Positions 13,079-59,817 of a stretch of 64,000 nt of DNA are shown here, piece after piece. The first letter of the stretch is position 1. Each line of letters opens with the position of its first letter. Below the pieces are notes generated by a model. It saw only the letters and a list, made by a program, of their open reading frames with translations, was not told the origin of the DNA and searched no databases. This DNA is from Dehalococcoidia bacterium (lineage in GTDB: Bacteria > Chloroflexota > Dehalococcoidia > Plut-88900): the NCBI GenBank assembly GCA_965197585.1, contig OZ240215.1, positions 1,024,001 to 1,088,000 of the forward strand. Direction: 5' to 3'. The translations under genes were made by a program, and so were the position numbers.

Positions 13079-14263
13079 ATGCGTTTCGACAGTACGCCTT
13101 ACTACCACGTTGGGGAACCCTACTACGCCATAGGTTGGGACGCGCTGATGTCAGAGGTCCGGCAGGAAGCCCAACTGCTGGAAGAGGCGGGTTTCACCAC
13201 CATGTGGTTCGCCGAACACCACTTCGCCTGGGACGGCTACTACAACGCCGCCCCGAACCCCCTCCTGGTGGCCGGAGACCTGATTCCGCGCACGAAGACC
13301 TTGCGCCTCGGGGCCCTGGGCACGGCCCTTCCCGACAGGCACCCGATACACGTGGCGGAAGACGTCGCCATGCTGGACCGGATGAGTCAGGGCCGCATGG
13401 AGTTCGGGATAATGCGGGGCGCAAATAATAGAGCCGGCGTCCAGTTCCACCCGGCCGCCGACCGCCGGAACAAGGAACAGAACTATCGACTATTCGCCGA
13501 ATGCCTGGAGATCATCGTCAAAGCATGGACTCAGGAGGCTTTCACCCACGAGGGAGAGTTTTACAAGTTCCCCGTGCCCGGGTGGCGGGAGTCGGTCAAG
13601 GAGATAACGGACGCCAGTCCTCTCCACTTCGCAGATGACGGGGAGATGGTGGCGTTGGGCCTGCACCCGAAACCCTATCAAAAGCCCCACCCGCCCATAT
13701 GGCAGATGGCGGATGCGATGGACTCCCATATTTTCGCCGGTGAGCGGGGCATCAACGCGATGTGCTACTCACCCCCCGTGGCCTCGATCAAGGAGCGGTG
13801 GCAGGCATATCGGGAGGCGGCCAGGGCGTCGGGGTGTGAGTTGGAGTACGGGGAAAACCTGGCAGTGATGAAGCCGTGCTTCGTGGTGAGAAGCATGGAC
13901 GACGAGGCGCTGTCCGCGGCGCGAATCGGTACCAACTTCCTGTTCGACCGTTCGCCACTGGCCAAGGTCGGTCGGCACATATACATCGGCGAAGGAGAAA
14001 CGTTGACAGCGGACGACAAATCGGACGACTGGTTCGACTTTCTGCGCCGTAATGGACACCTGTGGGTCGGGACGCCTGATTTCGTCGAGGAGAAGCTCGC
14101 TGAGTTGGAGTCGGAGTTGAACTGCAGCCACGTCGGCTTGTTTCTGAACATTCCGGGGCTCAGTTTCCGGCAGGTGATGGACAGCCTGACCCTGTTCGGC
14201 GAGCAGGTGATGCCGAGGTTCGACAGGACGGCCCCGGCCATCGGGGCGCAGGCAGTCGGATAA
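13079..14263 (+). CDS. LLM-class (luciferase-like) flavin-dependent oxidoreductase
   Basis: WFAEHHF, AEDVAMLD and PKPYQKPHPPIW motifs. Confidence 0.92.
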   Translation: MRFDSTPYYHVGEPYYAIGWDALMSEVRQEAQLLEEAGFTTMWFAEHHFAWDGYYNAAPNPLLVAGDLIPRTKTLRLGALGTALPDRHPIHVAEDVAMLDRMSQGRMEFGIMRGANNRAGVQFHPAADRRNKEQNYRLFAECLEIIVKAWTQEAFTHEGEFYKFPVPGWRESVKEITDASPLHFADDGEMVALGLHPKPYQKPHPPIWQMADAMDSHIFAGERGINAMCYSPPVASIKERWQAYREAARASGCELEYGENLAVMKPCFVVRSMDDEALSAARIGTNFLFDRSPLAKVGRHIYIGEGETLTADDKSDDWFDFLRRNGHLWVGTPDFVEEKLAELESELNCSHVGLFLNIPGLSFRQVMDSLTLFGEQVMPRFDRTAPAIGAQAVG

Positions 14264-17770: not shown

Positions 17771-18952
17771 ATGATAGAAAGATTTAGTATTCTGTATGCA
17801 GGCCACGTCAATGTCGATAATCTCGGATATGCCGGGACCCCGGCCAACGAGCGTTTTCTTTCGGACGAGGACCTCGCCTCGGCCCTCACCATTACCGATG
17901 AATTAGCTCAGACCGCCGACCGGCTCGGGTATCACACCCTGTGGATGGCGGAACACCACTTCCAGCGGGAAGGGTACGAGTGTCTGCCCAACCTCCTGAT
18001 GCAGAGCGTGCACCTGGCGCACATCACCAAGAACCTGAAATTCGGGTGCGCATTCAATGTGCCGCCCATGTGGAATCCACTGCGTCTCGCCGAGGACTAC
18101 GCCCTGGCCGACCACCTGACCGACGGCAGGGTCATCTTCGGGGTGGGGCGCGGGTATCATACCCGGGAGGTGGAGTCCTTCGGCGCGCCCATGCTGGACA
18201 GAGACGCGAACAGGGACTATTTCGAAGAGCAGGTGGAGGTCATTTTCAAGGCCTTTAACAACCGCTCCTTCTCCCACCACGGCAAATACTTCGATATCCC
18301 TCCCAAGGTGCCTTACCGCGGCTACGAATTGGAGGAAATAACCCTGGTCCCCAGGCCCAAACACCTGCCCGTTGAGTGCTGGCAGCCTATAGTGAGCTCC
18401 AACCCGCGAGGCATTGATTTCATGATCAAGCACGGGATCAAGGCCATCTCGGGTGGGGGCGCAGCCCCCGGCGGCGCCTCCCGGAGGGTTGTGGAGCTTT
18501 GGAGAGACTCACTGGTCAAGGCGGGCCGAGACGCGGCGCTTGGAGAAGACTTGATCATCGGCGAAAAATTCCACATAGCCGACAGCAGAGAGAAAGCCAT
18601 TGAAGAGGCTAGGCCCTACTTCGAGGAAAACACGAAGATGTTCGGTCCCTTGGGATTCGTCGGAGGCCTGACCGACGAGCAGAAGAAGGGCTTGGAAAAT
18701 CCGACACAGGAGCTTTGGGCCAGCCTGCCCACCATCGAAGACGACGTCCGGTCGGGGAACTTCCTGTGCGGCACTCCGGAGCAGGTAATCGAACCTCTGA
18801 TGCTGCTTCAGGACCTCTATCCCGGTCTGCGGGAGATCAACATCCAACCCATGATATCAACACCCTCGAAGGTCATCCTCGAGCAGATCGAGTGGTTTGC
18901 CAAAGAAGTGATGCCGGCTTTTCAGGTGAAACAGCCCAGTGCGGCCGGCTGA
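17771..18952 (+). CDS. LLM-class flavin-dependent oxidoreductase
   Basis: WMAEHHFQ, PLRLAED and FAKEVMP motifs. Confidence 0.92.
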   Translation: MIERFSILYAGHVNVDNLGYAGTPANERFLSDEDLASALTITDELAQTADRLGYHTLWMAEHHFQREGYECLPNLLMQSVHLAHITKNLKFGCAFNVPPMWNPLRLAEDYALADHLTDGRVIFGVGRGYHTREVESFGAPMLDRDANRDYFEEQVEVIFKAFNNRSFSHHGKYFDIPPKVPYRGYELEEITLVPRPKHLPVECWQPIVSSNPRGIDFMIKHGIKAISGGGAAPGGASRRVVELWRDSLVKAGRDAALGEDLIIGEKFHIADSREKAIEEARPYFEENTKMFGPLGFVGGLTDEQKKGLENPTQELWASLPTIEDDVRSGNFLCGTPEQVIEPLMLLQDLYPGLREINIQPMISTPSKVILEQIEWFAKEVMPAFQVKQPSAAG

Positions 18953-19015: not shown

Positions 19016-20239
19016 ATGAAGGTTTCCTATTTCCATTTGATGCCGTACCAGGACCTGCCCCGGGACTTCGAGTCCCGGTACCACAGCGCGTGGGTCGACC
19101 TGCCCAACGAGCACTTCGACTCGGCGAAGGGTGGACAGTACTACAAAGACTACTTAGCACAGCTCCAGCACGCAGACCAGCTGGGCTTCGACGGCATCTG
19201 CGTCAACGAGCACCACGGCAATGCCTATGGCCTGATGCCCTCACCGAACCTGATGGCGAGCATCCTGACCCAGACCACGTCCGACGCGGCGCTCATAGTG
19301 CTGGGCAACAGCCTCGCTCTCTACCAGCCACCGCTCAGGGTAGCGGAAGAGATGGCTATGCTCGACATAATGAGCGGTGGCAGGCTCGTAGCGGGGTTCC
19401 CGGTGGGAACCTCGATGGACACTACGTTCTCCTATGGACAGGTCCCGTTGCAACTGCGGGAACGCCACGCCGAGGCACACGACCTGATTATGAAGTCGTG
19501 GACGGAGAGAAAACCCTTCGCCTTCAACGGGAAGTACACCAAGCTGCGGTACGCGAACGTCTGGCCCCGACCCCTACAGAAGCCTCACCCACCGGTCTGG
19601 ATACCGGGAAGCGGGAGTTTGGAGACGTGGGACTGGGTGCTTAACCACAACTACGTCTACTGCTACCTGAGCTACTTCGGGTACCAGAGGGCCGAGAAAG
19701 TGGTGCAGGGCTACTGGAACACCGTCGCCGAGCGGGGCATCGACGACAACCCACACAGGTTTGGGTTCCTTCAGTTGGTGTGTGTCTCGGAGACGGATGA
19801 GCAGGCGGAAAAGGACTACGCGGAGCACGTGAAGTACTTCTACCAGAAGATGCTCTGGATACACCCGCCCTTTGCGGAGGCGCCCGGGTACCGGTCGATA
19901 AACTCGATGCGGAATTCGGCAAGAGCGCAGACGGGAAAGGAAGCGGCAAAAGCAGCGCTGGAGATGGGCTGGAAGGACTACGTGGAGAAGGGGCACATCA
20001 TCGCCGGGAGCCCGAGCACCGTGCGTGAACAGCTCACCGACGCCGTCAAGAGGCTCAGGATCGGCCACCTGATGTGCCTGCTGCACATTGGCAGTATGCC
20101 CGACGATATAGCCCGCAAGAACACGGAGCTCTTTGCCAAGGAAGTCATGCCGGGCCTCCAGGGATTGTTCAGCGAGTACGACGACCCGTGGTGGCCGCAA
20201 GCCGTGTCGAGACCCGTGGCGGCTCCTACGGTAGGCTAA
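19016..20239 (+). CDS. LLM-class flavin-dependent oxidoreductase
   Basis: VNEHH, RVAEEMAMLD and PRPLQKPHPPVW motifs. Confidence 0.92.
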   Translation: MKVSYFHLMPYQDLPRDFESRYHSAWVDLPNEHFDSAKGGQYYKDYLAQLQHADQLGFDGICVNEHHGNAYGLMPSPNLMASILTQTTSDAALIVLGNSLALYQPPLRVAEEMAMLDIMSGGRLVAGFPVGTSMDTTFSYGQVPLQLRERHAEAHDLIMKSWTERKPFAFNGKYTKLRYANVWPRPLQKPHPPVWIPGSGSLETWDWVLNHNYVYCYLSYFGYQRAEKVVQGYWNTVAERGIDDNPHRFGFLQLVCVSETDEQAEKDYAEHVKYFYQKMLWIHPPFAEAPGYRSINSMRNSARAQTGKEAAKAALEMGWKDYVEKGHIIAGSPSTVREQLTDAVKRLRIGHLMCLLHIGSMPDDIARKNTELFAKEVMPGLQGLFSEYDDPWWPQAVSRPVAAPTVG

Positions 20240-24321: not shown

Positions 24322-25311
24322 TTATGCCTTCTCGACGGCAGGAATGATCTCCTTGGCGAAAATCTCGGACTGGTCCAGCATGTCCTGGAAATCGTCTGTG
24401 GCGGTGTGCATCACGATGAAGTGGTCGACGCCCATCTTCTTTAGCCCGACCAATCTTTCGATGATCTCGTCCGTAGTCCCAATCCAGTGACCGCTCACCA
24501 GGTCCTCGGTGGGGGTGTTCCTACGGAAGTAGCCGAGAGTGCTGTCCTGGTAGCGCTTGACCGCCAGATCATGGTCTTTTTCGACCCGAAGGTCGGCCCA
24601 TACGCAGAAGTCGATGTCGGAAATGGTCCTACCGTTCTCTTCGAGCATGGGGGCAAGAGATTTGAGGACTGTCGGGGTCTCGGGGTCACGGACCATGGGC
24701 CCGAGACCGTACTTGGCGGTCCTCCTGAGAGAAGCCTCGCCGTGGGCTGCCAGGTACATGGGCAGCGGTCGTTGCACGGGTTTGGGACTGAGCTCCATAC
24801 TCCCGAACTCCACGTATTTACCGGAATAGGAGGCCGGGCCATCGCCGTTTAGGAGCAATGCCAGGGCGTCCAACTTCTCATCGAGCATGTTTCCCCGATG
24901 AGCGCCTCGGCTCCGCGGCCTTACGGTGACGAACTCCTCCCGAGAGCCGCCGAGGCCCAAACCCAACAGGAACCGCCCATTGCTGAATTGGTCAAGGGTC
25001 GCCGACTGCTTGGCCAGGATGACGGGGTCCCGTAGAGGGATGATTACCACACCGGCGCCCAGTTTAATGGTCTTCGTGACGCCGGAAAGGCTGGCGAGGC
25101 TGATCATAAGCTCGTACCAGTTGGGCTCAGTGTCGTCGGATGGACGGCCTCTGAGGTCGGAGACCGGGGCGGTGAAGTCGAACCCCCAAAGGGCGTAGTA
25201 GCCGAGCCGCTCGGCGTCCTGGGCGAAGTGCACAAGCTCCGCAGGCCCGGCAAAGTTGGCCGGGACCAGGAAACCCTCCATGCAATTGGGCAGGGCGATG
25301 TCGAACTTCAT
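24322..25311 (-). CDS. LLM-class (possibly F420-dependent) oxidoreductase
   Basis: AERLGY, RDPVILAKQSATLDQFSNGR and PKPVQRP motifs; start reassigned to MKFDI. Confidence 0.88.
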   Translation of the reverse strand: MKFDIALPNCMEGFLVPANFAGPAELVHFAQDAERLGYYALWGFDFTAPVSDLRGRPSDDTEPNWYELMISLASLSGVTKTIKLGAGVVIIPLRDPVILAKQSATLDQFSNGRFLLGLGLGGSREEFVTVRPRSRGAHRGNMLDEKLDALALLLNGDGPASYSGKYVEFGSMELSPKPVQRPLPMYLAAHGEASLRRTAKYGLGPMVRDPETPTVLKSLAPMLEENGRTISDIDFCVWADLRVEKDHDLAVKRYQDSTLGYFRRNTPTEDLVSGHWIGTTDEIIERLVGLKKMGVDHFIVMHTATDDFQDMLDQSEIFAKEIIPAVEKA

Positions 25312-25477
25312 TGTTGTTCTCCGTGTGAGGGGTGGGGGCGGGGATGAGGTTATTCTAATGGGAGGGGGGTGGGTGAGCAATGGAGTCGTTCATAGCTAGG
25401 GGAGTCCTGTGTCGGGGCACGGTGACGATGGAGAATAGAAGGAGTGGGAAGCTAATGGAGGAGCGCAGGTGAGCCGG

Positions 25478-30025: not shown

Positions 30026-30286
30026 ATGAGAACTACCTTGACTTTGGACAATGATCTGGCCGAGGCGCTCAAAGAGCGATCCCGTCTCCTGGACGTGCCT
30101 TTCAAGCAAGTCGTGAACGACGTACTGCGTCGAGGGCTTTCGCTTGGCACAATTAAGGAAGCCCCGGCGAAATACAGGGTGAAGCCCAATCGGAGTGGCT
30201 TCCTTCCCGGTGTAGATCCATTGAAACTGAACCAACTCAACGACGAGCTTGAGGTCCAAGACTTCCTCGAATCGGAGCGCCGGTGA
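30026..30286 (+). CDS. vapB: VapB-like RHH antitoxin (DUF2191-like)
   Basis: MRTTLTLDND...FKQVVN..LRRGL; overlaps the PIN gene by 4 nt. Confidence 0.8.
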   Translation: MRTTLTLDNDLAEALKERSRLLDVPFKQVVNDVLRRGLSLGTIKEAPAKYRVKPNRSGFLPGVDPLKLNQLNDELEVQDFLESERR

Positions 30287-30708
30287 TTGTCCCCGACCTC
30301 AACCTGCTAGTCTACGCCCACAATGATTCCACTCCCTTCCATGACCCTGCGCTAGTATGGTGGGAAGGGCTGATTAACGGCTCTGAGAGGGTGGGGGTGC
30401 CGTGGATTGTTTTAGCAGGATTTGTGAGGTTGATGACGCATCGTCGGATGCTGGCGAATCCTGTTACGACCACCCAGGCAATAGACTACATTCGCGAGTG
30501 GTTCCGGTTTCCACACGTTATGCCGATCAATCCTGGAGTCGGTCACCTGGACCACTTTCAGAGGAACCTGAAGGCTGCCGGAGTGGGCGGAAACCTTGTT
30601 ACCGACGCCCATATCGCTGCCCTCGCCATGGAATACCAGGCTGAAGTACATTCCAACGACACTGATTTCAGCCGCTTCCCCGGCCTCCGTTGGCGTAATC
30701 CCCTTTAG
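30283..30708 (+). CDS. vapC: VapC PIN-domain toxin
   Basis: PDLNLLVYA, DAHIAALA and SNDTDF.RF motifs. Confidence 0.9.
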   Translation: MIVPDLNLLVYAHNDSTPFHDPALVWWEGLINGSERVGVPWIVLAGFVRLMTHRRMLANPVTTTQAIDYIREWFRFPHVMPINPGVGHLDHFQRNLKAAGVGGNLVTDAHIAALAMEYQAEVHSNDTDFSRFPGLRWRNPL

Positions 30709-47714: not shown

Positions 47715-48416
47715 CTAGTCTCTCATCCCTTCCAGTACGGTCGCGATACCCTTCTGCAGGTCCTCGAACACCTCGCGGACGCTGCGCCGTGCGTCGATGG
47801 TCTCAAAATCGTACTGTTTGGAGAGGCTGCGAAATTCCTCGATGAGCGACCCCTGGTAGCGGACGAAGCTGGCGTAACGATCGGGCTCCCGAAGGAAGTC
47901 GTGCCCCGACTCCCAGTGATCGAGCTCTCGATTAGCCATGACGCGGGGAATCAGGTGCACCAAGTCCACGTCCAGGAAATAGATTTTATCCGGTACCATT
48001 GCGAACTCCAGCACGTCGTCGAGCCATCTGGCGGGGACGCCTCGAACCCTGGCACGCGCCATTATGGAGAAGATGTAACGGTCGCCCAGGATGACCATTC
48101 CGGCCTCCAGCGCTGGCATAATGCTCCTCTCCATTCGGTCCCAGAAATCGGTGGCGTAAAAGAGGTTAAGGGTAAGGTAGTCAAGGATATGTCCCCGCTT
48201 GGCGCGGTCTATCCCGCTGCCCGTCAGCGAGGAACGCCTGAATCCCGTGTCGGAAACGGCAAAACCTTCTGTCTCCAGCCATTCCTTGAGCAGCGCTATC
48301 TGGGTGGACCGCCCGACACCGTCGGTCCCTTCGATCACGATGAGGCGGCCCGGCAGCGGTTTCTCCGCCAGCTTGAGGGGGGTGTGACCGTAGAATGTTG
48401 GAATCTTCATCAGCAT
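47715..48416 (-). CDS. Thymidylate kinase-like protein B (P-loop GVGRST)
   Basis: LIVIEGTDGVGRSTQI and LGDRY motifs; lacks the Tmk REP motif. Confidence 0.8.
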   Translation of the reverse strand: MLMKIPTFYGHTPLKLAEKPLPGRLIVIEGTDGVGRSTQIALLKEWLETEGFAVSDTGFRRSSLTGSGIDRAKRGHILDYLTLNLFYATDFWDRMERSIMPALEAGMVILGDRYIFSIMARARVRGVPARWLDDVLEFAMVPDKIYFLDVDLVHLIPRVMANRELDHWESGHDFLREPDRYASFVRYQGSLIEEFRSLSKQYDFETIDARRSVREVFEDLQKGIATVLEGMRD

Positions 48417-48459: not shown

Positions 48460-49284
48460 CTACCCCTCGGTAAGAATGGGATCGGTCAGGCGCTGATATC
48501 CAGTGGGGGGCAAATAGCGGCCTGTTAACCCGGTGCTGGACAGAGCGTCAGGTACGCTGTGGCTGTCGAACTGCATAATTCCCGGGAGCAGGGGCTCGAC
48601 GTACTTTCTGACCTTTTGTTGCTGCGCGGCTATCGTCTGAGTGGCGTCTATGGTTACTAGGCCGTACTCATCCGTGAGCCTGCCGTATTCCTCCAGGAGG
48701 CGGCCCTGAAACTTGCGGAAAGACTCCTCTCGGCTGGAGGAGAGCCCTAGGTCCTGCCCCGACTCATAGAAGCCAAGCTGGTCGCGGCCTGTGACTATCC
48801 GGCGGATCGATTCGTCCAGGGGAACTTTGAAATAGAAGGCCAGGGAGGGCCGGATAGCGAAAGAATAGACGCGGCGCAGCCATTCTCCGTTGACCCCGCG
48901 GGCTGTGTCCCTGGCAAGGGCGGTGTAGACATAACGGTCGGCTAGAACTATGGTACCCGACTTCAGGGCGGGTATAACCTGCGTGTAGACGCGGTTGGCG
49001 AAGTCAGCGGCGTGGATCAAGCTGAAGGACATGGGAGTCAGCATTCTCTCCTGCTTGCCCCGTTTGGTAGTCCGCTTGACGATTGGTGAGGAGTTCCACT
49101 CCGTGAAAATAGTGACGTAACCAAGCCGCTTCAGCCATTTGCCCAGCAGATCAATCTGGGTGCTCTTGCCGGAGCCGTCTATGCCCTCGACGATGATCAG
49201 GCGGCCAGGGTACTTGCCATCTTGTGGATGATTCCCGTACCTCTGGCCCATTTGGAAGTTCGCGCTCAGGTCGTTATCCGTCAT
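48460..49284 (-). CDS. Thymidylate kinase-like protein A (P-loop GSGKST)
   Basis: LIIVEGIDGSGKSTQI and LADRY motifs; start reassigned to MTDND, 2 nt after the ppx stop. Confidence 0.8.
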   Translation of the reverse strand: MTDNDLSANFQMGQRYGNHPQDGKYPGRLIIVEGIDGSGKSTQIDLLGKWLKRLGYVTIFTEWNSSPIVKRTTKRGKQERMLTPMSFSLIHAADFANRVYTQVIPALKSGTIVLADRYVYTALARDTARGVNGEWLRRVYSFAIRPSLAFYFKVPLDESIRRIVTGRDQLGFYESGQDLGLSSSREESFRKFQGRLLEEYGRLTDEYGLVTIDATQTIAAQQQKVRKYVEPLLPGIMQFDSHSVPDALSSTGLTGRYLPPTGYQRLTDPILTEG

Positions 49285-49286
49285 CT

Positions 49287-50909
49287 CTACCCTCGTACGA
49301 TGTGCAAAGGTTGGTTGAACTCTGCATTCCAGCGTTCCTGAAGATGCGGGGCTGAGGCCCGGGCCCAAGCCGGGGTGACTATAGTGACTAATTCCTCCCC
49401 GGAAGCGTTTGGAGTCTCACTTTTCTCCGGCGAAATGGTAACACATTCCGGCGAAACATCAGGCGGCAAACGGCGCTCGATTTCGTCGGTAACCAGCAGG
49501 ATGGCAGCTGCCTGTCCTACAAACCGCTTGTCGGTTGGTGTCAACGCATCCGAACGTAGGAAGGGCCTTATAAGAATCTTGTCCTCGGCAGCTAGCAGTA
49601 TTGCGGCTATCTGGGCGCATTCCCTGTGGGTAAACCCTGGCAGATCAGACCGGGTGACCAGGGCGGCGGCCCTGTCGTACCGGTTATAGAAATCAATTGA
49701 GCTGCCTACGTCCAGAAGAAGGGCAGCGCATCGGAGAGACGAGGTTAGACGGCGGTGGCGGCCCTGCCATACGGCCTCTGCGATACGGCCACTGATGTTG
49801 GCCCTCCGTGCCCCGCGCCGGGAGAACCGAGGAGCGAAGCGCTGGGTCAGGTCGCGTAGGCCCTCGGATCGGATCTTGGAGCGTTTCGGCAGAGAGATAG
49901 TCTTGCCCGTTGGTATAGGGCTTGGATGCCGAGCCAGACCCTCCCGCAACCCCTGCCCCGATACGATTATCCCCTTGGCTCCTGTGTGGGATATAAGAGT
50001 TTGTGCTATCAACGCACCCCCGACAATAGAGTGGATCCGCCTGCGGTTCATGCCGGAGATGAGCGCTCGCTCCTCTCTCGTTGAAGAGGCCATCATATCC
50101 ATGAGAATTGCGAGCCCGTTGGCGCTGATGTAGTAGCCGTGCATTTTGGGAACAGGATGGGCAGTCCGGCGGCGGTCCAGCTTCGCCAGGAGTCTCATAG
50201 AGCCTCCGGACCCGACCAGCGCTCCTCCCTTGGAGAGAGGCGGGATTTTGGCCTCGGAGAAAAGGTCTGCGGCGTGTTGGGCGGCAGCGGCCAGGTCTTC
50301 CGGCGAGGGTTTGTCGGTCAGCCGGAACAGGTTGGCAAAACGCAAGCTGCCGAGCCGCAGGGAATCGAGAGTCTTCAGAGAACGGCGGGCGAATTGCACT
50401 ATCTCGGTGCTGCCGCCGCCCAGGTCCGCGAGGAGACCCCGGGCCACGGGCAGCCCGTGAATGGCACCGATGAAGCAGTAAGCGGCCTCCTCATATCCCT
50501 CGATTATTCGAAATGCGACGCCGTGCTTTTTGGTCGCGGCCTCTGTCACTTGGAAGGAATTGAGAGACTCCCGTAAGGCCGCCGTGCCCACACCATGCAC
50601 TTCCGTGATGCCGTATCCCGAACAGACTTGGGCAAAGTCCTCGATTGCGTCTATGACCCCTGAAACACCTTCTGAGTCCAGAGTCCCGTCGGCGTCGACG
50701 TGAGACATCAGGTTCAGGTTCAGTACTTGCTGGGCTATTGGTTCTATGCCCCCGCCGGGATTCAGGCGAATGATCTCGGCCCTGGCCGAGCCCGACCCTA
50801 TGTCGATAACAGCGGTCAGGGAGTCGTTGGATAGAGGGGTCGGGCCATGCGCCTCGGCGTGGAGGTCATGACGCGGCCGAGTTTGGAAGGAGCGAAGTTC
50901 AGGAACCAA
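49287..50909 (-). CDS. ppx: Ppx/GppA exopolyphosphatase family protein
   Basis: IDIGSGS, GTAALRE, EEA, DLGGGSTE and GLREG motifs; degenerate C-terminal HD region; start uncertain. Confidence 0.88.
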   Translation of the reverse strand: MVPELRSFQTRPRHDLHAEAHGPTPLSNDSLTAVIDIGSGSARAEIIRLNPGGGIEPIAQQVLNLNLMSHVDADGTLDSEGVSGVIDAIEDFAQVCSGYGITEVHGVGTAALRESLNSFQVTEAATKKHGVAFRIIEGYEEAAYCFIGAIHGLPVARGLLADLGGGSTEIVQFARRSLKTLDSLRLGSLRFANLFRLTDKPSPEDLAAAAQHAADLFSEAKIPPLSKGGALVGSGGSMRLLAKLDRRRTAHPVPKMHGYYISANGLAILMDMMASSTREERALISGMNRRRIHSIVGGALIAQTLISHTGAKGIIVSGQGLREGLARHPSPIPTGKTISLPKRSKIRSEGLRDLTQRFAPRFSRRGARRANISGRIAEAVWQGRHRRLTSSLRCAALLLDVGSSIDFYNRYDRAAALVTRSDLPGFTHRECAQIAAILLAAEDKILIRPFLRSDALTPTDKRFVGQAAAILLVTDEIERRLPPDVSPECVTISPEKSETPNASGEELVTIVTPAWARASAPHLQERWNAEFNQPLHIVRG

Positions 50910-51178: not shown

Positions 51179-54100
51179 TTGACTCCTTCATACAATCCCC
51201 GAATCGGAGCAGCGCTGGCCGTTCTCGTCATTGCGGCGAGTGTTTTCCTGGGATGGCCGGGATTACCCCTGCCCGCATGGGCGAATGGGGATGACTGGGG
51301 GATGGTCAAAATAAGTGAGGTCACCAAGACCGAGGCCAAGGTCACGATCACCTTCGTCGACGAAACCGCAACCGGTCTTGTTCATTGGCGATACCGCAAC
51401 ACCATGCCCGAGGGACAATGGCTCGGACTTGACGGGGTCTCGGTCATCGGCGGTATCTCCGTATTCGATATTGCTATGCTGAGCCCCGGGACCGATTATG
51501 AGTTACAAGTGTCTCTCGACGGGGATTTTTTGCAGACTGACATCCTATCTAAGAATTTCACAACCCTACCCCCCGACCCATCCGTTTCTGAAGTGATTGT
51601 TGAGAACGTCACCCTGACGGAGGCGACCGTCGTTATAACCATTGCCAACCCAGGTACTTCTTCCAAGACGGTACACATCCAATACCGCACCGACGACACC
51701 CAGCCCTGGAGCGATCCGCCAATCACCATAACCACCTCTACCGATACAGCAACGAAAACGCTGCTCAGCCTAAATCCCGGTACCCGCTACGAAGTGGAGG
51801 CCTCCCTGGGAGTCGGTTTCCTGTCCACCGAGACTGAATCCACGACTTTCACCACCCTCCTCCCAAGGGTCTCGGGTGTGAGCCTAGAAAATGTCACCAC
51901 TTCCAAAGCTACAGTCACGGTAACCATCGCCGAACCGGGGCCCGGTGAAAACAAGGTCTACTTGCGTTACAGCATCGTGCCTTCAACACAGATCTCTTGG
52001 ATTATCCCTTCTCCGAAGTCGGTGGTCGGAGATACAACAACCTTCGCGCTGACAGGTCTGGCCCCGTACTCCGAATACGAAGTGCAGGTGTCTCTGGATG
52101 GCTCATTCACCTCAGAGGTCGAGTCCGCCACCTTTACAACGGCAGCTCCCCCGAGCATCGGTTCGGTGAACATGGCAGATGTCGAGCAGAATTCAGCCAG
52201 TGCTATTGTGAGCATCTTCGACTCGGATGGGACCGCCGTAACCGTCCACCTGCGCTACCGCGAGACACCCTCTGGAGCTTGGATTGCGATCCAACACGAG
52301 ATAACTACGACTGAAGCTGCGGAATTCTCATTGTCGGGCCTGATGCCGGACACAGAATACGAGGTGGAAGTGTCGCTGGATAACGGCTTCTCTCTGGGTC
52401 GGTCCGCCACTTTTACTACCGAAGCAATGACGTCCAGGCCATCCTCACCAGTGGTTCGGGTCTCCGGGCTCTTCACAGAAGACATAACGCCTGGCTCGGT
52501 GACCGTGGTTGTATTGATCGCAGGCCCGGAAAACCGAGTAACGGTGAATTTGCGGTATGGGATCGAAGGCACGAATACGTGGAGCCGTACACTTCGCCGA
52601 ACCACCGCTACGGACACCGCTCCATTCGAGCTTGGAGGGCTGACGGCCGCCACGACTTACGATATAGAAGCGTCCCTATCCCCTGACTTTCCGGTCCACG
52701 AATCCGCGTACGATATCTTTACAACTGCCGCAATTAGTGTTTCGCGGCTCAGGCTGGTAGACATAACCGACACAGAGGCGACCGCGATTGCAGAGATTGA
52801 AGATCCCCAAGGCCAGACTACGGTCTTCGTGCGCTACATAGCCTTGGGAACGGGGGCTTGGAGCGAACCTCAAAGCCGAATTACTAGCTCCAATACGGTG
52901 CGTCTTTTCCTAGCGGGCCTCCTGCCGGATACTCAATACGAGGTGGAGGCCTCTTCAGAGGAGAGCTTCCCCGGTGATAACTCGGCACTCGAGACATTTA
53001 TCACCGAGCCCGCGCCCAGGGTCTCTGAGGCAAATGTGGAGGGCATCACCAATGTGTCCGCCACAATTGCAGTGGACATTGACAGCCCACAGGCTCAGAT
53101 GAAGGTATATCTGCGGTTCCGTGTCGAGGGTACAGGGACCTGGAGTACGACCAGAACCCGTACTACCTCCATACCCAGCGCTCGGTTTTCCTTAGCGGAC
53201 CTGAAGTCTGATACGGGATATGAAGTCGAGACGTCCCTTGACAAGGACTTCCCAGCAGACAGCACTGTATCTGTGGTCTTTTCTACGCAACCGAATCCCA
53301 AGGTCTCAGACGTGACAGTCGAGGACATAACGGAAAAGAGCGGGACTGCAATTGTGAAGATTAACGGGCCACAACCCCGGACAACGGTCTATCTGCGCCA
53401 CCAAGCCCATGGAGACTCGGCTTGGAGCGTGCCTCAAACCCGAACAACCTCTTTGGACACTGCGCGATTTACTTTGTCGGGTCTGATGCCGGACACCGAG
53501 TACGAAGTAGAGGTTTCACTGAATCACGACTTTGAGGAGCTTATTTCTGAGACCTTCCTTACGGCTGCAAAAAGGCCGAAGCCATCCTCCGTAACAGGAG
53601 GGCCTATTACGCAGACCACGGCCTCTATCATTGTGCATATAGACGACCCTCAAGGCAGTTTGACAATCCATCTGCGTATCCGAATTTGGGGCTCAAATAC
53701 TTGGAACAATCCTGAAACCCTCGTAACGTCGGCCTCCGCCGCTCCCTTCGACCTGAAACGCCTTACAGGAGGCACAACCTACGAAGTCGAGGTGTCCCTT
53801 GAATCAGCCTTCCCTCCTGCGGATACTGTTTCGGCCATCTTCACGACCACCCCTGCGACTAAGGTGTCGGGGGTGAATGTCGGAAGTGTTGCTGCAATAG
53901 AAGCCACCGTCACGGTCACAATTTCTCACTCTGAAGGGAATATCCGGACGGTCTATATGCGCTACCGCGGGCTGCCTGAGGGGGACTGGAGTGCAAGCCA
54001 AACGGAAACGGATGCGTCAACAGTGGATGCCCTGTTACCGGGCTTGATTCCCGATACTGAATACGAGGTACAGGCTTCGTTGTATGAGACTTTTCCGGCT

Positions 54101-54589
54101 ACCGACACCCAAGTACAGAGGTTCAATACTCTTTCCGCACAGCCCACGGAAATGCCAACCCCCGTGCCCGCAGCAACACCCACTCATACGCCTACCCCCG
54201 AACCCACATCAACACCCGAGCCCATATTTACCCCCGAACCAACCCCCACATCCACACCCAAGGCCGAGCCCACCATGACCCCCACTCCTCCACCCTCCCC
54301 AACACCCACGCCTCCACCGTCTCTCACCCCCACTCCCACGGCAACTCCCAGCCATACCTCCACCCCGACCAATACGCCCAAACCCGCCGAGACGCCTGCT
54401 CCCACGCCTACCACAATCCTAACTGCACCTGCACTATTTTCACCCACCTCTGCCCCTACCTCGACATCTCAGGCGGAGGAAGAAGAGACCGGGACAGACT
54501 TAGCCCTCGTGATCACCATAGTTACATTGGTCATTGCCTTTGCTATGGTGCTCGGCTTCTTCGTATACCGTCCGAGAACGGCGAGTTAG
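51179..54589 (+). CDS. Large surface protein: signal peptide, 10 FN3-like repeats, Pro/Thr stalk, C-terminal TM anchor
   Basis: Ten L.P.T.YEVE.SL motifs about 95 aa apart; PT repeats at about 54140-54470; hydrophobic C-terminus followed by YRPR. Confidence 0.85.
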   Translation: MTPSYNPRIGAALAVLVIAASVFLGWPGLPLPAWANGDDWGMVKISEVTKTEAKVTITFVDETATGLVHWRYRNTMPEGQWLGLDGVSVIGGISVFDIAMLSPGTDYELQVSLDGDFLQTDILSKNFTTLPPDPSVSEVIVENVTLTEATVVITIANPGTSSKTVHIQYRTDDTQPWSDPPITITTSTDTATKTLLSLNPGTRYEVEASLGVGFLSTETESTTFTTLLPRVSGVSLENVTTSKATVTVTIAEPGPGENKVYLRYSIVPSTQISWIIPSPKSVVGDTTTFALTGLAPYSEYEVQVSLDGSFTSEVESATFTTAAPPSIGSVNMADVEQNSASAIVSIFDSDGTAVTVHLRYRETPSGAWIAIQHEITTTEAAEFSLSGLMPDTEYEVEVSLDNGFSLGRSATFTTEAMTSRPSSPVVRVSGLFTEDITPGSVTVVVLIAGPENRVTVNLRYGIEGTNTWSRTLRRTTATDTAPFELGGLTAATTYDIEASLSPDFPVHESAYDIFTTAAISVSRLRLVDITDTEATAIAEIEDPQGQTTVFVRYIALGTGAWSEPQSRITSSNTVRLFLAGLLPDTQYEVEASSEESFPGDNSALETFITEPAPRVSEANVEGITNVSATIAVDIDSPQAQMKVYLRFRVEGTGTWSTTRTRTTSIPSARFSLADLKSDTGYEVETSLDKDFPADSTVSVVFSTQPNPKVSDVTVEDITEKSGTAIVKINGPQPRTTVYLRHQAHGDSAWSVPQTRTTSLDTARFTLSGLMPDTEYEVEVSLNHDFEELISETFLTAAKRPKPSSVTGGPITQTTASIIVHIDDPQGSLTIHLRIRIWGSNTWNNPETLVTSASAAPFDLKRLTGGTTYEVEVSLESAFPPADTVSAIFTTTPATKVSGVNVGSVAAIEATVTVTISHSEGNIRTVYMRYRGLPEGDWSASQTETDASTVDALLPGLIPDTEYEVQASLYETFPATDTQVQRFNTLSAQPTEMPTPVPAATPTHTPTPEPTSTPEPIFTPEPTPTSTPKAEPTMTPTPPPSPTPTPPPSLTPTPTATPSHTSTPTNTPKPAETPAPTPTTILTAPALFSPTSAPTSTSQAEEEETGTDLALVITIVTLVIAFAMVLGFFVYRPRTAS

Positions 54590-54652: not shown

Positions 54653-54928
54653 ATGCCGAGGATACAACTGATACTCTCCGACGAAGAGCGAGAGCTGTTC
54701 AAGGCTCAAGCACATCGAGAGGGCAAGCCCCTTGATGAATGGCTGAAGGCTGCCGCTCGCCAGCGTCTCGGGTGGGCACCCCCTGCAACCAGGCCTGGCA
54801 GAATTGAAGACCTTGACGCGTTCTTCCGTAAGTGCGATGAGATTCCAGGACCCGAACGTGAACCCGACTGGGAGGAGTACAAGAAGCTGATTAATGAGGT
54901 GCGTCCGTCAGTAGCGGACGCCTCGTGA
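54653..54928 (+). CDS. RHH-type antitoxin
   Basis: MPRIQLILSDEER..F..QA.REG..L..WL..AA; overlaps the PIN gene. Confidence 0.75.
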   Translation: MPRIQLILSDEERELFKAQAHREGKPLDEWLKAAARQRLGWAPPATRPGRIEDLDAFFRKCDEIPGPEREPDWEEYKKLINEVRPSVADAS

Positions 54929-55308
54929 TTTTCGTCGACACCAACGTCTTCATTTATGCTGTGGGAAGCAGTCATCCGTTGAAGAGTCCAGCGGAGGAGT
55001 TTTTCCGTAGCGCTCGGGACAGCGGCACGTCCCTAGTTACCTCTGTGGAAGTACTCCAAGAGTTGCTCCACGTCTATCGACGCACTGGTAGACTTCAACA
55101 ATTGGATGATGCGATGTCACTGGTCACAAGTGACATCGCACAAGTGTGGCCTTTGGAGTGGGCGGATGTGGACAAGGCCCGACAACTCCACGATAGCTAT
55201 CCTGGACTGGCGACTCGAGACCTCTGCCACCTGGCAAGTTGTAGGAATCGGGGCGTTGAGACGATTATGACCTTCGACCAGCCTCTGCTTTCGGCGGCTA
55301 GCGCCTGA
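54925..55308 (+). CDS. vapC: VapC PIN-domain toxin
   Basis: FVDTNVFIYA, EVLQE, RDLCHLA and TFD motifs. Confidence 0.9.
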   Translation: MIFVDTNVFIYAVGSSHPLKSPAEEFFRSARDSGTSLVTSVEVLQELLHVYRRTGRLQQLDDAMSLVTSDIAQVWPLEWADVDKARQLHDSYPGLATRDLCHLASCRNRGVETIMTFDQPLLSAASA

Positions 55309-56515: not shown

Positions 56516-57619
56516 GTGTGCGCTATGCGATACCCGACCTGGGAAGAGTTTATGGGGGATTGGGAGGAGTTCATCAAGGGTAGCTTCGGGGACAGGCCTA
56601 TGTTCCCCACCCTCGCCCCCGAGACTCCAACCTTCATGGGATTGCCCGAGGCCAAGACGCCGGAAGACTTGAAGGGCGTTGACGCGGCGATAATCGGCGC
56701 GCCCTACGTGGCCACAACCCACGATACCTACGCGGGTGTGGACCGAAACGAGTGGCTTTCGGCGCCGAAGAGGGTCAGGCAGCAGTCGGCGCGATACCAG
56801 TCGGGGTACATCCAGGAGTTCCGGATGGACGTGTTTGATCACCTGAAGGTCGTTGACTACGGTGACGCTCCCATACCCGCCGAGGTTATGAGAGACCAGT
56901 CCCCCGAGAACATACTAAAGGCCCAGGCGGCCGTAGAGATGAAGGTGGGACAGGTGTTGGATGCAGGGGCCATTCCGGTGGTTATCGGGCAGAATTCTCC
57001 GTGCGGGTCCTATGCCATTGCCAAGCCGATAGCCGAACGTACCGACGGCTCCGTGGGATGCGTCAGCCTCGACACGCACTGGGACATCCAACCGATAGAC
57101 TTTCTGTCCCAGGACCCGAGAATCGCCGGCTCTGCAAGCTGGAAGCACAAGATGTACGAGTTCCACGAAAACATGCATCCCCAGCATCTGGTCGAGATTG
57201 GGGAGCGGGGGATGCTGGAGAGAAAGGATCTCGTCGAATCATATACCGACCGTGGGGCTCGGTTCATCTCCTCTTGGGAGGTGCGCGACGAGCTCGGCAT
57301 GAAGGGCGTGGCCCACGAGCTGGACCGGGCTTACAACGGCACGAAAGCCGTTTACGTACACTTCGACATGGACGTGATGGGCGGCGCGGGGCCCGCGCCC
57401 GGGGACATCCTCGGAGAGGCGGTGGAGCCCATAGGCCTATCCGACTTCGAGATCATCAAGATAGCCCATGAGGTGGGGAAGCGGGGGGTGTCGGGATTTT
57501 CCTTCATCTGCATCCCGCCCGGGTCCGCAGTGGTCTATCGGGTGATCGTCTACGTCATCATGTACATGCTCGCCGGGGTGGCGATGGCCAAGAGAGACGG
57601 GACTTACTTACTGAAGTAA
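56516..57619 (+). CDS. Ureohydrolase (arginase/agmatinase family), divergent
   Basis: PTFMGLP, VVDYGD, LDTHWD and VHFDMD motifs; AAGGAGG RBS. Confidence 0.85.
   Translation: MCAMRYPTWEEFMGDWEEFIKGSFGDRPMFPTLAPETPTFMGLPEAKTPEDLKGVDAAIIGAPYVATTHDTYAGVDRNEWLSAPKRVRQQSARYQSGYIQEFRMDVFDHLKVVDYGDAPIPAEVMRDQSPENILKAQAAVEMKVGQVLDAGAIPVVIGQNSPCGSYAIAKPIAERTDGSVGCVSLDTHWDIQPIDFLSQDPRIAGSASWKHKMYEFHENMHPQHLVEIGERGMLERKDLVESYTDRGARFISSWEVRDELGMKGVAHELDRAYNGTKAVYVHFDMDVMGGAGPAPGDILGEAVEPIGLSDFEIIKIAHEVGKRGVSGFSFICIPPGSAVVYRVIVYVIMYMLAGVAMAKRDGTYLLK
57582..57618 (+). repeat. 37-bp direct repeat, copy 1 (ureohydrolase 3' end)
   Basis: cgatggccaagagagacgggacttacttactgaagta matches 58841-58877 at 34/37 positions. 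Confidence 0.9.
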
Positions 57620-57645
57620 GATATGGAAATGCCGCGCCCGGCCTC

Positions 57646-58461
57646 TCACCGACCCGGCGGCCGCTGATCGGCTGGCAGTTCGCTTCCGCCGGTCCCGTGG
57701 GTGAAATCTTCACCCCATTCGTAGGGCAGGTCGGTGATCCGGCCCGGCTCATCGAGCGTGTTCAGAGTGCCGAGAGCGTCCTTGATGATGTTCATCTGGA
57801 GCTCTCTGTCGAACGGCTTGCCACATTGATGTCCCAAGGGGAAGTTGACGAACACCGGCCGGGGTGGCTTCACCTGAGCCATCATATCCCTGACCGAGCC
57901 TACGTACACGGTGCTAACGCCTACCTCTTCAACTACCCTCGCTAGCAGTCCAACGGACTGGTGGTCCAGCGGTCAGGCAGGTACACAGAAGAGGACGTCA
58001 ACCTTGGCCTCCTTGAGTTTTCTGGCGATCTCGGCCGCCAACTGTGTCTGGAGAGCTGTACGCTTGTACATTCTCCCCATTCCGAGTCCGTAGTTGATTT
58101 CGGCCAGTTCCCCTATATAGCCCTCCTGCTCCAACTCCCGGAATCTGTCTAAAGGCAAGATGACGTTGGGGTCCCGGTCGGCGTCACGGTGGTCATAATA
58201 GTTGTAGTTGATTATCAGGTCTTCGGTCGGGGTGTCTTTGGGGATCTCCCGGTAGCTTAGCTCGCTTCTGGCCAAGGGGTCGAAAGGCTCCTGGTCCCTG
58301 CGGGACATCCCGGAGGAGCAGAGCAGCGCCACCTTCGCCTGGTCGAGCGGCTTCTCGAACGGGCTCCAGGTCGTGGTGCGGAACACTGACCACTTGTAGG
58401 GTGGAAACCCGTGGCCTTGATAATAGGCGTTGAGGTTGGCTACGTAGTCTATGGGCTTCAT
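57646..58461 (-). CDS. GrdB/PrdB-like selenoprotein (271 aa, in-frame UGA = Sec at 57973-57975)
   Basis: Two predicted ORFs lie in one frame joined across TGA: ...VLFCVPA-U-PLDHQSVGLLARVVEEVGVSTV...PPR..FVNFPLGH.CGKP; D.DPNV..PLDR..EL..EG.IG; AAGGAGG RBS. Confidence 0.88.
57940..57971 (-). promoter_or_regulatory. Bacterial SECIS element
   Basis: After UGA: CGCUGG/CUAGCG lower stem, CAGUCC/GGACUG upper stem, GUU apical loop with G at +19. Confidence 0.8.
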
Positions 58462-58646
58462 CCATGACCTCCTTGTTATAGGGGCAATCCCCGCTCCGGC
58501 CTTTGCAGCCGTTTCAGCTTCTCTGGGGCCACCTCGACTGCTCCGGGGCTCCGTCAGCCTCACATTGACGACCATTTGCCGCCCGAGGCATCCCGGAACC
58601 GTTTGAGGGTCTACTCACTGAGGTTGTCGGGTCGATGTTAGCGACG

Positions 58647-58675
58647 AGTGTATCATTCGGAGTACCCTGCTTCAA
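58647..58675 (-). promoter_or_regulatory. Putative promoter of the selenoprotein gene
   Basis: TTGAAG-17nt-TACACT with extended -10 TG; implies a leader of about 180 nt. Confidence 0.5.
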
Positions 58676-58754
58676 ACAATCCGGACACGGGCAACGTCCA
58701 TCTTCAACTACAGACGTAGCGCCTACTGTTCCGTCTAGCTCACCCCACCAGGGA

Positions 58755-58844
58755 CTAGACTGTCATGTCGTAGCTGCGGCGCACCTTGTCGGGCAAGGCT
58801 CCAGAGCATTCCTGGCCCTCGAACGTGATGGTCTCGTTCACGAT
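58755..58844 (-). pseudogene. Orphan 3' fragment of an N-acyl-D-amino-acid deacylase gene
   Basis: Translates IVNETITFEGQECSGALPDKVRRSYDMTV*, aligning with LVNGAVTFEGNDCTGALPGKLLRSCDMVS* of 34366-36054. Confidence 0.8.
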
Positions 58845-58877
58845 GGCTAAGAAACACGGGACTTACTTACTGAAGTA
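58841..58877 (+). repeat. 37-bp direct repeat, copy 2 (orphan ureohydrolase tail)
   Basis: Encodes MAKKHGTYLLK* versus MAKRDGTYLLK* in the intact gene. Confidence 0.9.
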
Positions 58878-58901
58878 GGGCGTCCTGGCAGAGCAAAAGA
58901 T

Positions 58902-58940
58902 TCGGGCGGTTGGCTTAGCCAACCGCCCGAGTGTCTTCTT
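58902..58940. terminator. Intrinsic terminator hairpin downstream of tmRNA (possibly bidirectional)
   Basis: tcgggcggttggc-tta-gccaaccgcccga with A/T-rich flanks. Confidence 0.8.
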
Positions 58941-58943
58941 ACT

Positions 58944-59296
58944 TGGTGGAGACGGGGGAGGGTCGAACTCCCCGTCCAGAAGGTGGCCCCAGAGCGTCTA
59001 CAGGCTTAGACGGCACTTAAATTTCGCCCGCCGTATCGCAGCCGACGACGACAACGGAAGGCTAGCTGAATAGTCTTAACCTGTCCCTCACAGCATTAGG
59101 GCAGGAGCACCTCGATTTGCGTCGCCCTGAGACGGCCTTCGAGGAGAGGCCGAACAGGACGGGTTACCTAGTGTCTAGGCAGCCAGTGCGTACTGACGTT
59201 TGCCAGTTATGTTTTTGCCGCTGGTTTTACGAGTCCCACGGCGCCTCGGCCTGCAACCCTGGGTTACCGTGACTCCTGTCGAGCCCACGCGTCCCC
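58944..59296 (-). ncRNA. ssrA: tmRNA; tag peptide (A)GKRQYALAA* at 59175-59204
   Basis: 5' GGGGACGCG.GG.TCGAC; 3' T-arm GTTCGAC...TCTCCACCA; resume context ATAACT-GGC; adjacent to smpB. Confidence 0.95.
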
Positions 59297-59355
59297 AAGC
59301 TGTAGGACTTTATTTTAACATAACGTCTTGCTTGGGGCTCGGGACCCGAAGAGCG

Positions 59356-59817
59356 TCAGCTCCGTCTTATGCCGATTTCTTTGAGGACCGCCCGCTGCAT
59401 CTGCCTATCGGCCTCCCGACGTGCGATGGCCGCTCGCTTGTCATAAAGTTTGCGGCCGCGTGCCACCCCGATCTCTATCTTCGCCTTATGGTTCTTGATG
59501 TAGAGCCTGAGCGGAACCAGGGTTAATCCCTTTTCCTGCACCTTGGATGAGAGGTAGTCGATCTGGCCGCGGTGCATAAGCACCTTTCTAGGGCGCATGG
59601 GCTCGTGGTTCGAACGATTGCCGTTGGAGTAAGGCGAAATGTGGGCGCCGTGGAGCCAAAGCTCGTCGTCTTCGGGGCGTGCGAATGCATCCCGGATATT
59701 GACCTTGCCGTCCCGGATCGACTTGATCTCCGTTCCCGTAAGCACGAGTCCTCCTTCGAACGACTCCAGGATGTCGTACTCAAAACGGGCCTTGCGGTTG
59801 ACGCTGATGGTTTTCAT
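59356..59817 (-). CDS. smpB: SsrA-binding protein
   Basis: NRKARFEY, GLVLTGTEIKSIR, GLTLVPL and GRKLYDKR motifs. Confidence 0.97.
   Translation of the reverse strand: MKTISVNRKARFEYDILESFEGGLVLTGTEIKSIRDGKVNIRDAFARPEDDELWLHGAHISPYSNGNRSNHEPMRPRKVLMHRGQIDYLSSKVQEKGLTLVPLRLYIKNHKAKIEIGVARGRKLYDKRAAIARREADRQMQRAVLKEIGIRRS

Follow-up and report, generated by a model that had tools for sequence, protein, structure and literature searches.

A 64,000-nucleotide (nt) stretch of a Dehalococcoidia genome (Chloroflexota; assembly GCA_965197585.1, contig OZ240215.1, positions 1,024,001 to 1,088,000; hereafter the window, all positions being counted from its first letter unless a related locus is named) carries on its minus strand two adjacent open reading frames (ORFs), 57973-58575 and 57646-57909. 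These raise the question of whether they are the debris of a broken gene, two small proteins, or the halves of one selenoprotein, and what such a selenoprotein would do. As a preliminary description of the locus had noted, both ORFs lie in a single frame, the sole interruption of which is a TGA at 57975-57973. The explanation that best accounts for the whole of our data, to which we assign a probability of about 75%, is that the codon is decoded as selenocysteine (Sec) by the bacterial route of SelB and a Sec insertion sequence (SECIS), that the product belongs to a PrdB-like clade marked by the motif U-P-L-D-H-Q (UPLDHQ) and uses Sec as its reactive centre, and that no PrdA-type partner is encoded beside it.

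Read through the TGA, the frame constitutes a coding sequence of 271 codons plus stop (57646..58461, minus strand), with codon 163 as a UGA read as Sec (57973..57975, minus strand), an assignment based on the alternation of TGA, TGC and TGT in relatives. It starts with ATG at 58461-58459, where relatives begin with the same M/V-K-P-I-D-Y-V, and 6 nt before this codon a Shine-Dalgarno-like AAGGAGG can be read from the sequence (58468..58474, minus strand). The true stop is a TGA (57646..57648, minus strand); five close relatives stop there too, and two run on for six codons more. In the 271-residue read-through product U163 stands in the context F-C-V-P-A-U-P-L-D-H-Q, and the codons of the putative active-site motif U163-P-L-D166-H167-Q168, identified by alignment conservation, occupy 57958..57975 on the minus strand. 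The gene is located downstream of a transfer-messenger RNA (tmRNA) gene and a strong terminator-like hairpin, and at a distance of 26 nt it faces an arginase-family gene in convergent orientation. The hairpin, with 13 base pairs (bp; 58902..58930, minus strand) just after the tmRNA gene, sets the selenoprotein gene apart from the upstream transcript. Probably, then, this is one intact, monocistronic gene for a selenoprotein of 271 residues.

Relatives were collected by scanning a genome collection, which gave 111 pattern matches, of which 81 were confirmed as relatives and 80 kept, with 79 related loci. The site was readable in 77 loci; one locus is damaged at the site (L075) and another is cut short (L079). 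The aligned codon is TGA in 68 of the readable loci, TGC in eight and TGT in one, and the cysteine (Cys) forms read C-P-L-D-H-Q. Judging by record titles, Sec forms occur in Dehalococcoidia, Deltaproteobacteria/Desulfobacterota, Binataceae, Gamma- and Alphaproteobacteria, Myxococcales, Nitrospinota and others. Tabulating homologues at this site together with the residue at +3, a check proposed in the preliminary description, thus returned Sec or Cys in 77/77 readable loci, with mostly aspartate (Asp) at +3. Compared with seven Dehalococcoidia relatives (synonymous divergence up to about 0.6), the ratio of nonsynonymous to synonymous differences per site (pN/pS) was 0.09-0.16 for codons 164-271 and 0.04-0.22 for codons 1-162. 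Given that pN/pS is as low downstream of the UGA as upstream, codons 164-271 must be translated in frame.

If the TGA were instead a nonsense mutation, leaving a pseudogene or two small proteins, or were decoded as another residue, one would read the standard annotation, which stops the protein at residue 162, at face value, and one database entry (P0012) does have W at the site. Such a codon, however, would hardly be kept in 68 of 77 loci across phyla with Cys in the remaining nine, nor would it be followed by an intact frame under purifying selection and by a hairpin that covaries; moreover, the gene's own terminator is TGA, so that TGA also serves as a stop in this host. We consider this explanation very improbable, and as far as comparative sequence data can decide, it is already contradicted. 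UGA163 is accordingly best described as a codon predicted to be recoded to Sec, in what the comparisons mark as a genuine selenoprotein gene.

The putative recoding signal is a SECIS-type hairpin (57940..57971, minus strand), defined by a 40-nt fold and by family covariation. It starts 4 nt past the UGA with a lower tier of 6 bp (57971-57966 with 57945-57940), which is separated by a 5-nt bulge from an upper tier of 6 bp, CAGUCC/GGACUG (57960-57955 with 57951-57946), and it ends in a GUU loop (57954-57952), the G of which lies 19 nt past the UGA. Folding confirmed in this way the two-tier hairpin, the GUU loop and the G at +19 that had been described before. The 40-nt fold had an energy of -15.2 kcal/mol (z = -1.8; 11 of 200 shuffles equally stable), and a 71-nt fold was unexceptional (z = -0.71; 48 of 200 shuffles as stable). 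Stability is thus barely above chance, and the hairpin claim is carried by comparative evidence and not by energy.

This evidence came from an ungapped alignment of 68 Sec forms (the window and 67 loci, L076 being too short) over 48 nt counted from the UGA. The alignment supports an 8-pair stem joining columns 14-21 with columns 25-32, which in the window corresponds to a family-conserved stem at 57962-57944 (minus strand; alignment covariation). Pair 15-31 is U-A in 30 sequences and C-G in 23, pair 19-27 is U-A in 33, A-U in 24 and U-G in six, and pair 18-28 is G-C in 56 and A-U in five; four further pairs are invariant. Three stem pairs show double changes, and the observed covariation was reached by 0 of 500 shuffles. 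For the 18-pair structure as submitted, 73% of the cells were paired, as compared to 21-38% when the structure was slid by 1-3 columns; the outer lower helix, also tried on the alignment, found poor support. Some of the compensatory changes are tied to synonymous or conservative codon changes. Double changes couple His CAU/CAC with Ile AUN/Val GUN and Ser UCN/Thr ACN with Gly GGA/GGU, and Gln CAG/CAA is likewise coupled with Leu CUG/UUG across the stem. SECIS conservation among relatives, the other comparative check proposed at the outset, is therefore visible both as stem covariation and as an invariant loop.

The apical loop is GUN in 68/68 Sec forms and GCN in 9/9 Cys forms (U versus C at loop position 23). 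As GUN is confined to Sec forms, Val at +7, which is Ala in the Cys forms, is dictated by the RNA signal. The nine Cys forms (L037, L039, L042, L047, L054, L056, L064, L066 and L072; site at about 10487-10534 in most of these loci) keep 5-7 of the 8 stem pairs below the GCN loop, and this stem remnant looks like the relic of a former SECIS. The G-U of the loop resembles the SelB-binding G23/U24 of E. coli fdhF. The signal would be a hairpin of the 8-bp class that begins about 10 nt past the UGA and displays G-U in its apical loop, and UGA163 would be decoded as Sec along the bacterial SelB/SECIS route.

Regarding the decoding machinery, one related locus (L019) has a selD gene at 4176-5171 (plus strand; TIGR00476, 355 bits versus a cut-off of 125), 5 kb upstream of its PrdB-like gene. 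This selD has an in-frame UGA of its own, in G-S-G-U-A-A-K near the N-terminus, and it is followed by an msrB gene (SelR domain). Dehalococcoidia metagenome-assembled genomes (MAGs) with 49 and 46 selenoproteins rank among the richest bacteria in a 2026 database paper (PMC13326102).

Next to the decoding of the UGA, the locus raises the question of which protein is encoded. Membership of the GrdB/PrdB family, originally proposed from the sequence flanking the TGA, was borne out by matches to Pfam PF07355 (GRDB; 42.9 bits versus a cut-off of 22, E = 5e-11), where the gathering threshold was passed, and to TIGR04483 (PrdB), the best NCBIfam match, which covered model positions 17-235 of 238 and at 166.5 bits missed the cut-off of 300. 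The models for GrdB, GrdF and GrdH (TIGR01917, NF040794 and NF040795) scored 41-47 bits, far from their cut-offs of 602-800, and were matched only in their C-terminal half (positions about 204-426). A true PrdB (P0163), which reads C-G-T-C-H-R, reached 453.2 bits on TIGR04483. A search of the whole protein library returned 1664 representatives at E <= 0.001; the motif was surveyed in the best 150 of these, and among the 86 of them with at least 230 residues the site is C-x-x-C in 49 and C-x-x-D in three; P0163 is one of these 86. Judged by this count and by P0163, U/C-x-x-C-H-Q had fairly been called the usual motif of the superfamily. For the natural Cys homologue P0123, the ESM Atlas returned only GRDB/PrdB clusters. 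The protein is a short PrdB-type form of the GRDB fold.

With PrdB of the Clostridium sticklandii / Clostridioides difficile type it shares the short GRDB-fold architecture of ~240-270 residues with end-to-end alignment, Sec at the equivalent position preceding a helix, His at +4 and the D-x-N...F-P loop motif; a Cys at -4 is common to true PrdB P0163 and the window's lineage. It differs from PrdB in its score below the cut-off, in having Asp for Cys at +3 and in the lack of prdA, prdC or any other prd gene nearby, and its clade is found in Dehalococcoidia, Proteobacteria, Binataceae and others instead of Stickland-fermenting Bacillota. GrdB, GrdF and GrdH (~430 residues) have PF07355 in common with the window protein, and the match spans their Sec-bearing C-terminal half, whereas the window protein is without the entire N-terminal half and its gene without grdA, grdE or grdC neighbours. 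GrdB is furthermore given as U-x-x-C-x-x-C in a 2026 review (PMC13188914), as opposed to U-x-x-D here. Since the tests for PrdB failed on score, U-x-x-C motif and prdA neighbour alike, the protein is not to be called a D-proline reductase.

We then asked how far the Asp at +3 extends beyond the window. In the window and the 77 readable loci taken together, the motif is U-P-L-D-H-Q in 64, C-P-L-D-H-Q in nine and U-P-L-C-H-Q in two, with one case each of U-P-L-D-H-H, U-P-R-D-H-Q and U-P-V-C-H-Q. A 65-row alignment, composed of the window and 64 of 73 usable loci (the other nine, being near-duplicates or too short, were omitted), has D166 in 62 rows and Q168 in 64, and its invariant residues include U/C163, P164, H167, D97, D155, R175, E178, R201 and Q222. 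That Asp occupies the position of the resolving Cys, noticed earlier for this one sequence, thus held for nearly all aligned members, as opposed to the C-x-x-C of most relatives. A FastTree tree was calculated from 139 rows, i.e. the window, 72 loci and 66 representatives of 230-330 residues (L073 was dropped as too short). The UPLDHQ sequences fall in one 76-row clade with a Shimodaira-Hasegawa-like support of 91, within which the window is one of the eight rows of a Dehalococcoidia clade with support 100. On at least two occasions in the tree, Cys forms branch from within Sec forms. Together, these data delimit the UPLDHQ proteins, at the level of sequence, as a distinct and widespread clade present in Dehalococcoidia, Desulfobacterota, Binataceae, Proteobacteria and others.

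The adjoining group of 18 rows in the tree is mostly C-P-x-C-H-x and includes L078 (U-P-V-C-H-Q) and P0174 (C-P-L-D-H-Q). Cys-type C-P-x-C-H-Q proteins of this kind have the GRDB fold in common with the UPLDHQ clade, are also uncharacterised and also not located beside PrdA, but they keep the C-x-x-C pair, and in place of Sec they mostly have Cys. Some of them carry a fused adenylation domain, a fusion not observed in the UPLDHQ clade. In the C-P-V-C-H-Q group, P0189 (805 residues) and P0188 (514 residues) are fused to an AMP-binding (adenylating) enzyme, a hint that activated acyl compounds can be substrates of PrdB-like domains. No longer fused form of the window protein was found, which is weak evidence.

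An AlphaFold2 model of the joined protein had a predicted local distance difference test score (pLDDT) of 90.2 and a predicted template modelling score (pTM) of 0.90. In this model Sec163 lies between a strand (156-160) and a helix (164-179), a predicted place that is the usual one for the reactive residue of C-x-x-C-type proteins. As to other Cys residues, the preliminary description had pointed to a Cys four residues before Sec. It is indeed present in the window sequence and in 8/8 members of the window's clade, but it is no feature of the family, as it was found in 4/65 rows of the alignment, all from that clade. Cys100 is far more widespread (59/65 rows) and lies in a D-x-N-C-x-F-P loop, the D-x-N...F-P frame of which is conserved superfamily-wide; position 213 is Cys in 37/65 rows, the window included. 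Among 113 rows with a Sec/Cys site, 67 have Cys100 without a Cys at +3, 28 have the +3 Cys without Cys100, 13 have neither and five have both.

The genomic context was evaluated from Pfam-type families encoded around the gene. None of the 59 window ORFs scanned belongs to a PrdA/GrdE, GrdA or thioredoxin family, in agreement with what had been noted before, and none of these families was found among 20 cluster representatives, 73 immediate and 31 further neighbours in the related loci. The earlier label of a stand-alone gene consequently holds for the neighbourhoods examined and goes too far when extended beyond them. Near the gene in the window are an M20 ArgE/DapE-type deacylase and SmpB, and the set of arginase-family, M20 deacylase, tmRNA and SmpB genes is common only to L001, L002 and L007. 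The tmRNA gene itself (58944-59296, minus strand; Rfam 144 bits) encodes the tag peptide GKRQYALAA, and smpB is beside it at 59356-59817 (minus strand).

Other neighbours recur in parts of the family. Of the 80 neighbourhoods, 14-18 have the gene flanked by two acyl-CoA dehydrogenases on one side and by an O-methyltransferase-family gene on the other, and often contain a FabK-like NMO-family reductase, an enoyl-CoA hydratase or an acyl-CoA ligase too; most of them belong to MAGs labelled Desulfobacterota/Deltaproteobacteria. Loci with this arrangement include L008, L017, L018, L019, L025, L027, L031, L034 and L079 (within 3 kb on either side), and their dehydrogenases are weakly PimC/PimD-like. 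Of the six Cys-form loci from Gammaproteobacteria, five have an Rv2258c-like methyltransferase adjoining the gene, and in L039 it is two genes off. In two further loci (L022:4059-5856 and L075:1273-4899), genes for a corrinoid-binding protein (B12-binding domain) and an MtaA/CmuA-type methyltransferase adjoin the selenoprotein gene; with these corrinoid/MtaA genes and the S-adenosylmethionine-dependent methyltransferase genes elsewhere, methyl transfer is a recurring theme among the neighbours. A DUF1847 neighbour was found in three loci, a CoA-transferase III in two, and rhodanese-domain genes adjoin two members (L056 and L058). The Desulfobacterota neighbourhoods point loosely to acyl-CoA and methyl-transfer metabolism as the substrate area.

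How would such a protein work? In classical PrdB, Sec attacks the substrate bound to the pyruvoyl group of PrdA, and Cys then resolves the selenoether. In the UPLDHQ proteins, Sec163 at the N-terminus of the helix may be the catalytic nucleophile or redox centre, assisted by His167, which is invariant, and Asp166, which is nearly so. With the +3 Cys missing, an internal Se-S bond to that residue is impossible, and recycling would hence depend on a distal Cys or on an external thiol. Candidate recycling Cys residues are those at position 100 in most members and at 48, 159 or 213 in the window's lineage. Nor would the protein serve as B subunit to an adjacently encoded PrdA-type pyruvoyl reductase. 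One may go further and propose that the UPLDHQ proteins form a PrdA-independent selenoenzyme family spanning many phyla, marine and Dehalococcoidia lineages among them, in which the exchange of Cys for Asp has changed the chemistry. Sec, aided by His167 and Asp166, would then be the nucleophile of a reaction other than a plain selenol-thiol redox cycle, with recycling by an external reductant. An example would be a cleavage or transfer reaction with an acyl- or methyl-linked substrate; the acyl-CoA dehydrogenases, methyltransferases and corrinoid proteins that recur among the neighbours hint at this. We put this extended proposal forward tentatively, at somewhat less than an even chance.

Several results weigh against a Sec enzyme of this kind or leave parts of it without support. 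No selA, selB, selC or selD was detected in the 64-kb window by ORF and RNA scans, and an Rfam search of 57600-59400 in E-value mode had the tmRNA as its sole match and returned no SECIS family. No solved relative was found in the PDB by sequence, and Foldseek gave 0 matches to the PDB at E <= 0.001, for which reason no structure-based inference on function was drawn. Cys100 is replaced by Val in the window's own clade. Its role as a relocated resolving Cys, for which the raw counts show a strong association, did not pass a test on phylogenetically independent pairs (four pairs, median p = 1); with only four well-supported independent contrasts the sign test is uninformative, and the Cys100 replacement is therefore a lead and not a result. 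Likewise, a conserved operon partner was rejected, since clustering of 872 neighbour ORFs revealed no universal partner, and with no neighbour conserved family-wide the context gives no firm function. The neighbour scan in the related loci covered part of these 872 ORFs, and a partner may be encoded elsewhere in the genome.

The last point bears on the idea that the protein is an ordinary B subunit of a D-proline or other amino-acid reductase, with its PrdA/GrdE-type partner and electron-transfer proteins encoded elsewhere. PrdB is after all the best NCBIfam match over nearly the whole model, such sequences are filed under PrdB in published catalogues, and the partner search covered the window and the neighbourhoods only. 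Yet the score is little more than a third of that of true PrdB (166.5 versus 453 bits, with the cut-off at 300), the +3 Cys of U-x-x-C is Asp in 62/65 members, no PrdA-like neighbour occurs in the neighbourhoods examined, and the genes of the window, with luciferase-like monooxygenases, amidohydrolases and a copper amine oxidase, are unlike those of a Stickland fermenter. We therefore hold an ordinary reductase subunit to be unlikely. Much the same can be said of a protein that handles selenium or sulfur or senses redox state, i.e. a carrier, chaperone or thiol-selenol switch, rather than an enzyme acting on a carbon substrate. The lack of a conserved operon partner would fit such a role, as would the rhodanese-domain genes beside L056 and L058, the selD and msrB genes near one member (L019), and a superfamily member (P0149) fused to a helix-turn-helix DNA-binding domain. 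These associations concern few loci, however, the relatives are enzymes, and invariant polar residues away from the Sec site (D97, D155, R175, E178, R201 and Q222) suggest a substrate pocket, which makes this role quite unlikely in our view. A selenoenzyme of the PrdB-like UPLDHQ clade, without an adjacent PrdA-type partner, is the reading we prefer to both.

Other parts of the window were inspected as well. It has four genes for luciferase-like monooxygenases (13079-14260, 17771-18949, 19016-20236 and 24322-25377) and is also rich in amidohydrolase, amidase and M24 peptidase genes, a content of heterotrophs and not of amino-acid fermenters. PIN-domain ORFs are located at 54653-55308 and 30283-30705 (both plus strand); the former overlaps by 4 nt an upstream ORF of 91 residues without Pfam match, a layout of the VapBC toxin-antitoxin type. 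A protein of 1136 residues with repeated fibronectin-III-like and immunoglobulin-like domains, probably surface-bound or secreted, is encoded at 51179-54589 (plus strand). Tandem thymidylate-kinase-family genes (47715-48416 and 48460-49368, both minus strand) stand by genes for a Ppx/GppA phosphatase and a homocysteine S-methyltransferase.

Finally, we compared the gene with the published record, all statements on the papers named here referring to their accessible parts. 'Proline reductase PrdB', with the motif UxxC, is among the most abundant marine selenoproteins in the Sargasso Sea (Zhang et al. 2005, PMC1088965), and the Global Ocean Sampling survey ranks PrdB likewise, with the same motif (Zhang and Gladyshev 2008, PMC2398784). 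UPLDHQ occurs twice in the supplement of the former, both times in sequences labelled 'Proline reductase PrdB', and six times in that of the latter; the same supplements hold other PrdB-like motifs, e.g. U-G-L-C-N-Q and U-P-V-C-H-Q. Some of these marine sequences have an identical A-P-A-U-P-L-D-H-Q-T-V-G and match the marine gammaproteobacterial branch of the clade (compare L067, L070 and L071), whereas the window member is from Dehalococcoidia and 42-44% identical to those branches. As UPLDHQ was printed in the 2005 and 2008 supplements, the Sec status of the clade is no new finding; neither paper comments on the Asp, on the missing partner or on a separate clade. The 2026 review lists D-proline reductase as UxxC (PMC13188914), and its accessible text holds no 'UxxD', 'UPLD' or 'UxxE'. 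In the full-text literature, subscription journals being outside the scope of the search, no description of a UxxD motif or of a PrdB-like or GrdB-like selenoprotein family was found, and no family term is present in the accessible part of the genome list in the BSepDB supplement. As far as our searches reach, the Asp, the separateness of the clade and the lack of partners have apparently not been discussed in print. The gene hence adds a new member, from Dehalococcoidia, to a PrdB-like clade that has already been catalogued computationally as PrdB, and it is no new kind of system.

The gene had been presented as hidden, split into pieces by standard pipelines. The pieces are indeed in the databases, where 101 of 120 relatives among the matches listed are exactly 162 residues long and end at the TGA, and C-terminal fragments stand as separate entries; hidden in the full sense it is not, the clade having been printed as selenoproteins. 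As public protein sets truncate the gene at its UGA, selenoproteins are under-counted in Dehalococcoidia and other lineages. Further, at least a part of what is called PrdB is without the +3 Cys and without a nearby PrdA, so that the name 'proline reductase' probably misleads. A SECIS within the coding sequence, with Sec and Cys forms side by side, offers a natural experiment on the constraint that an RNA signal places on a protein. Our findings thus provide a clear correction of annotation and draw attention to an enzyme that is abundant but uncharacterised, and the PrdA-independent chemistry, if true, would give a function to an abundant group of marine selenoproteins now mislabelled 'proline reductase'.

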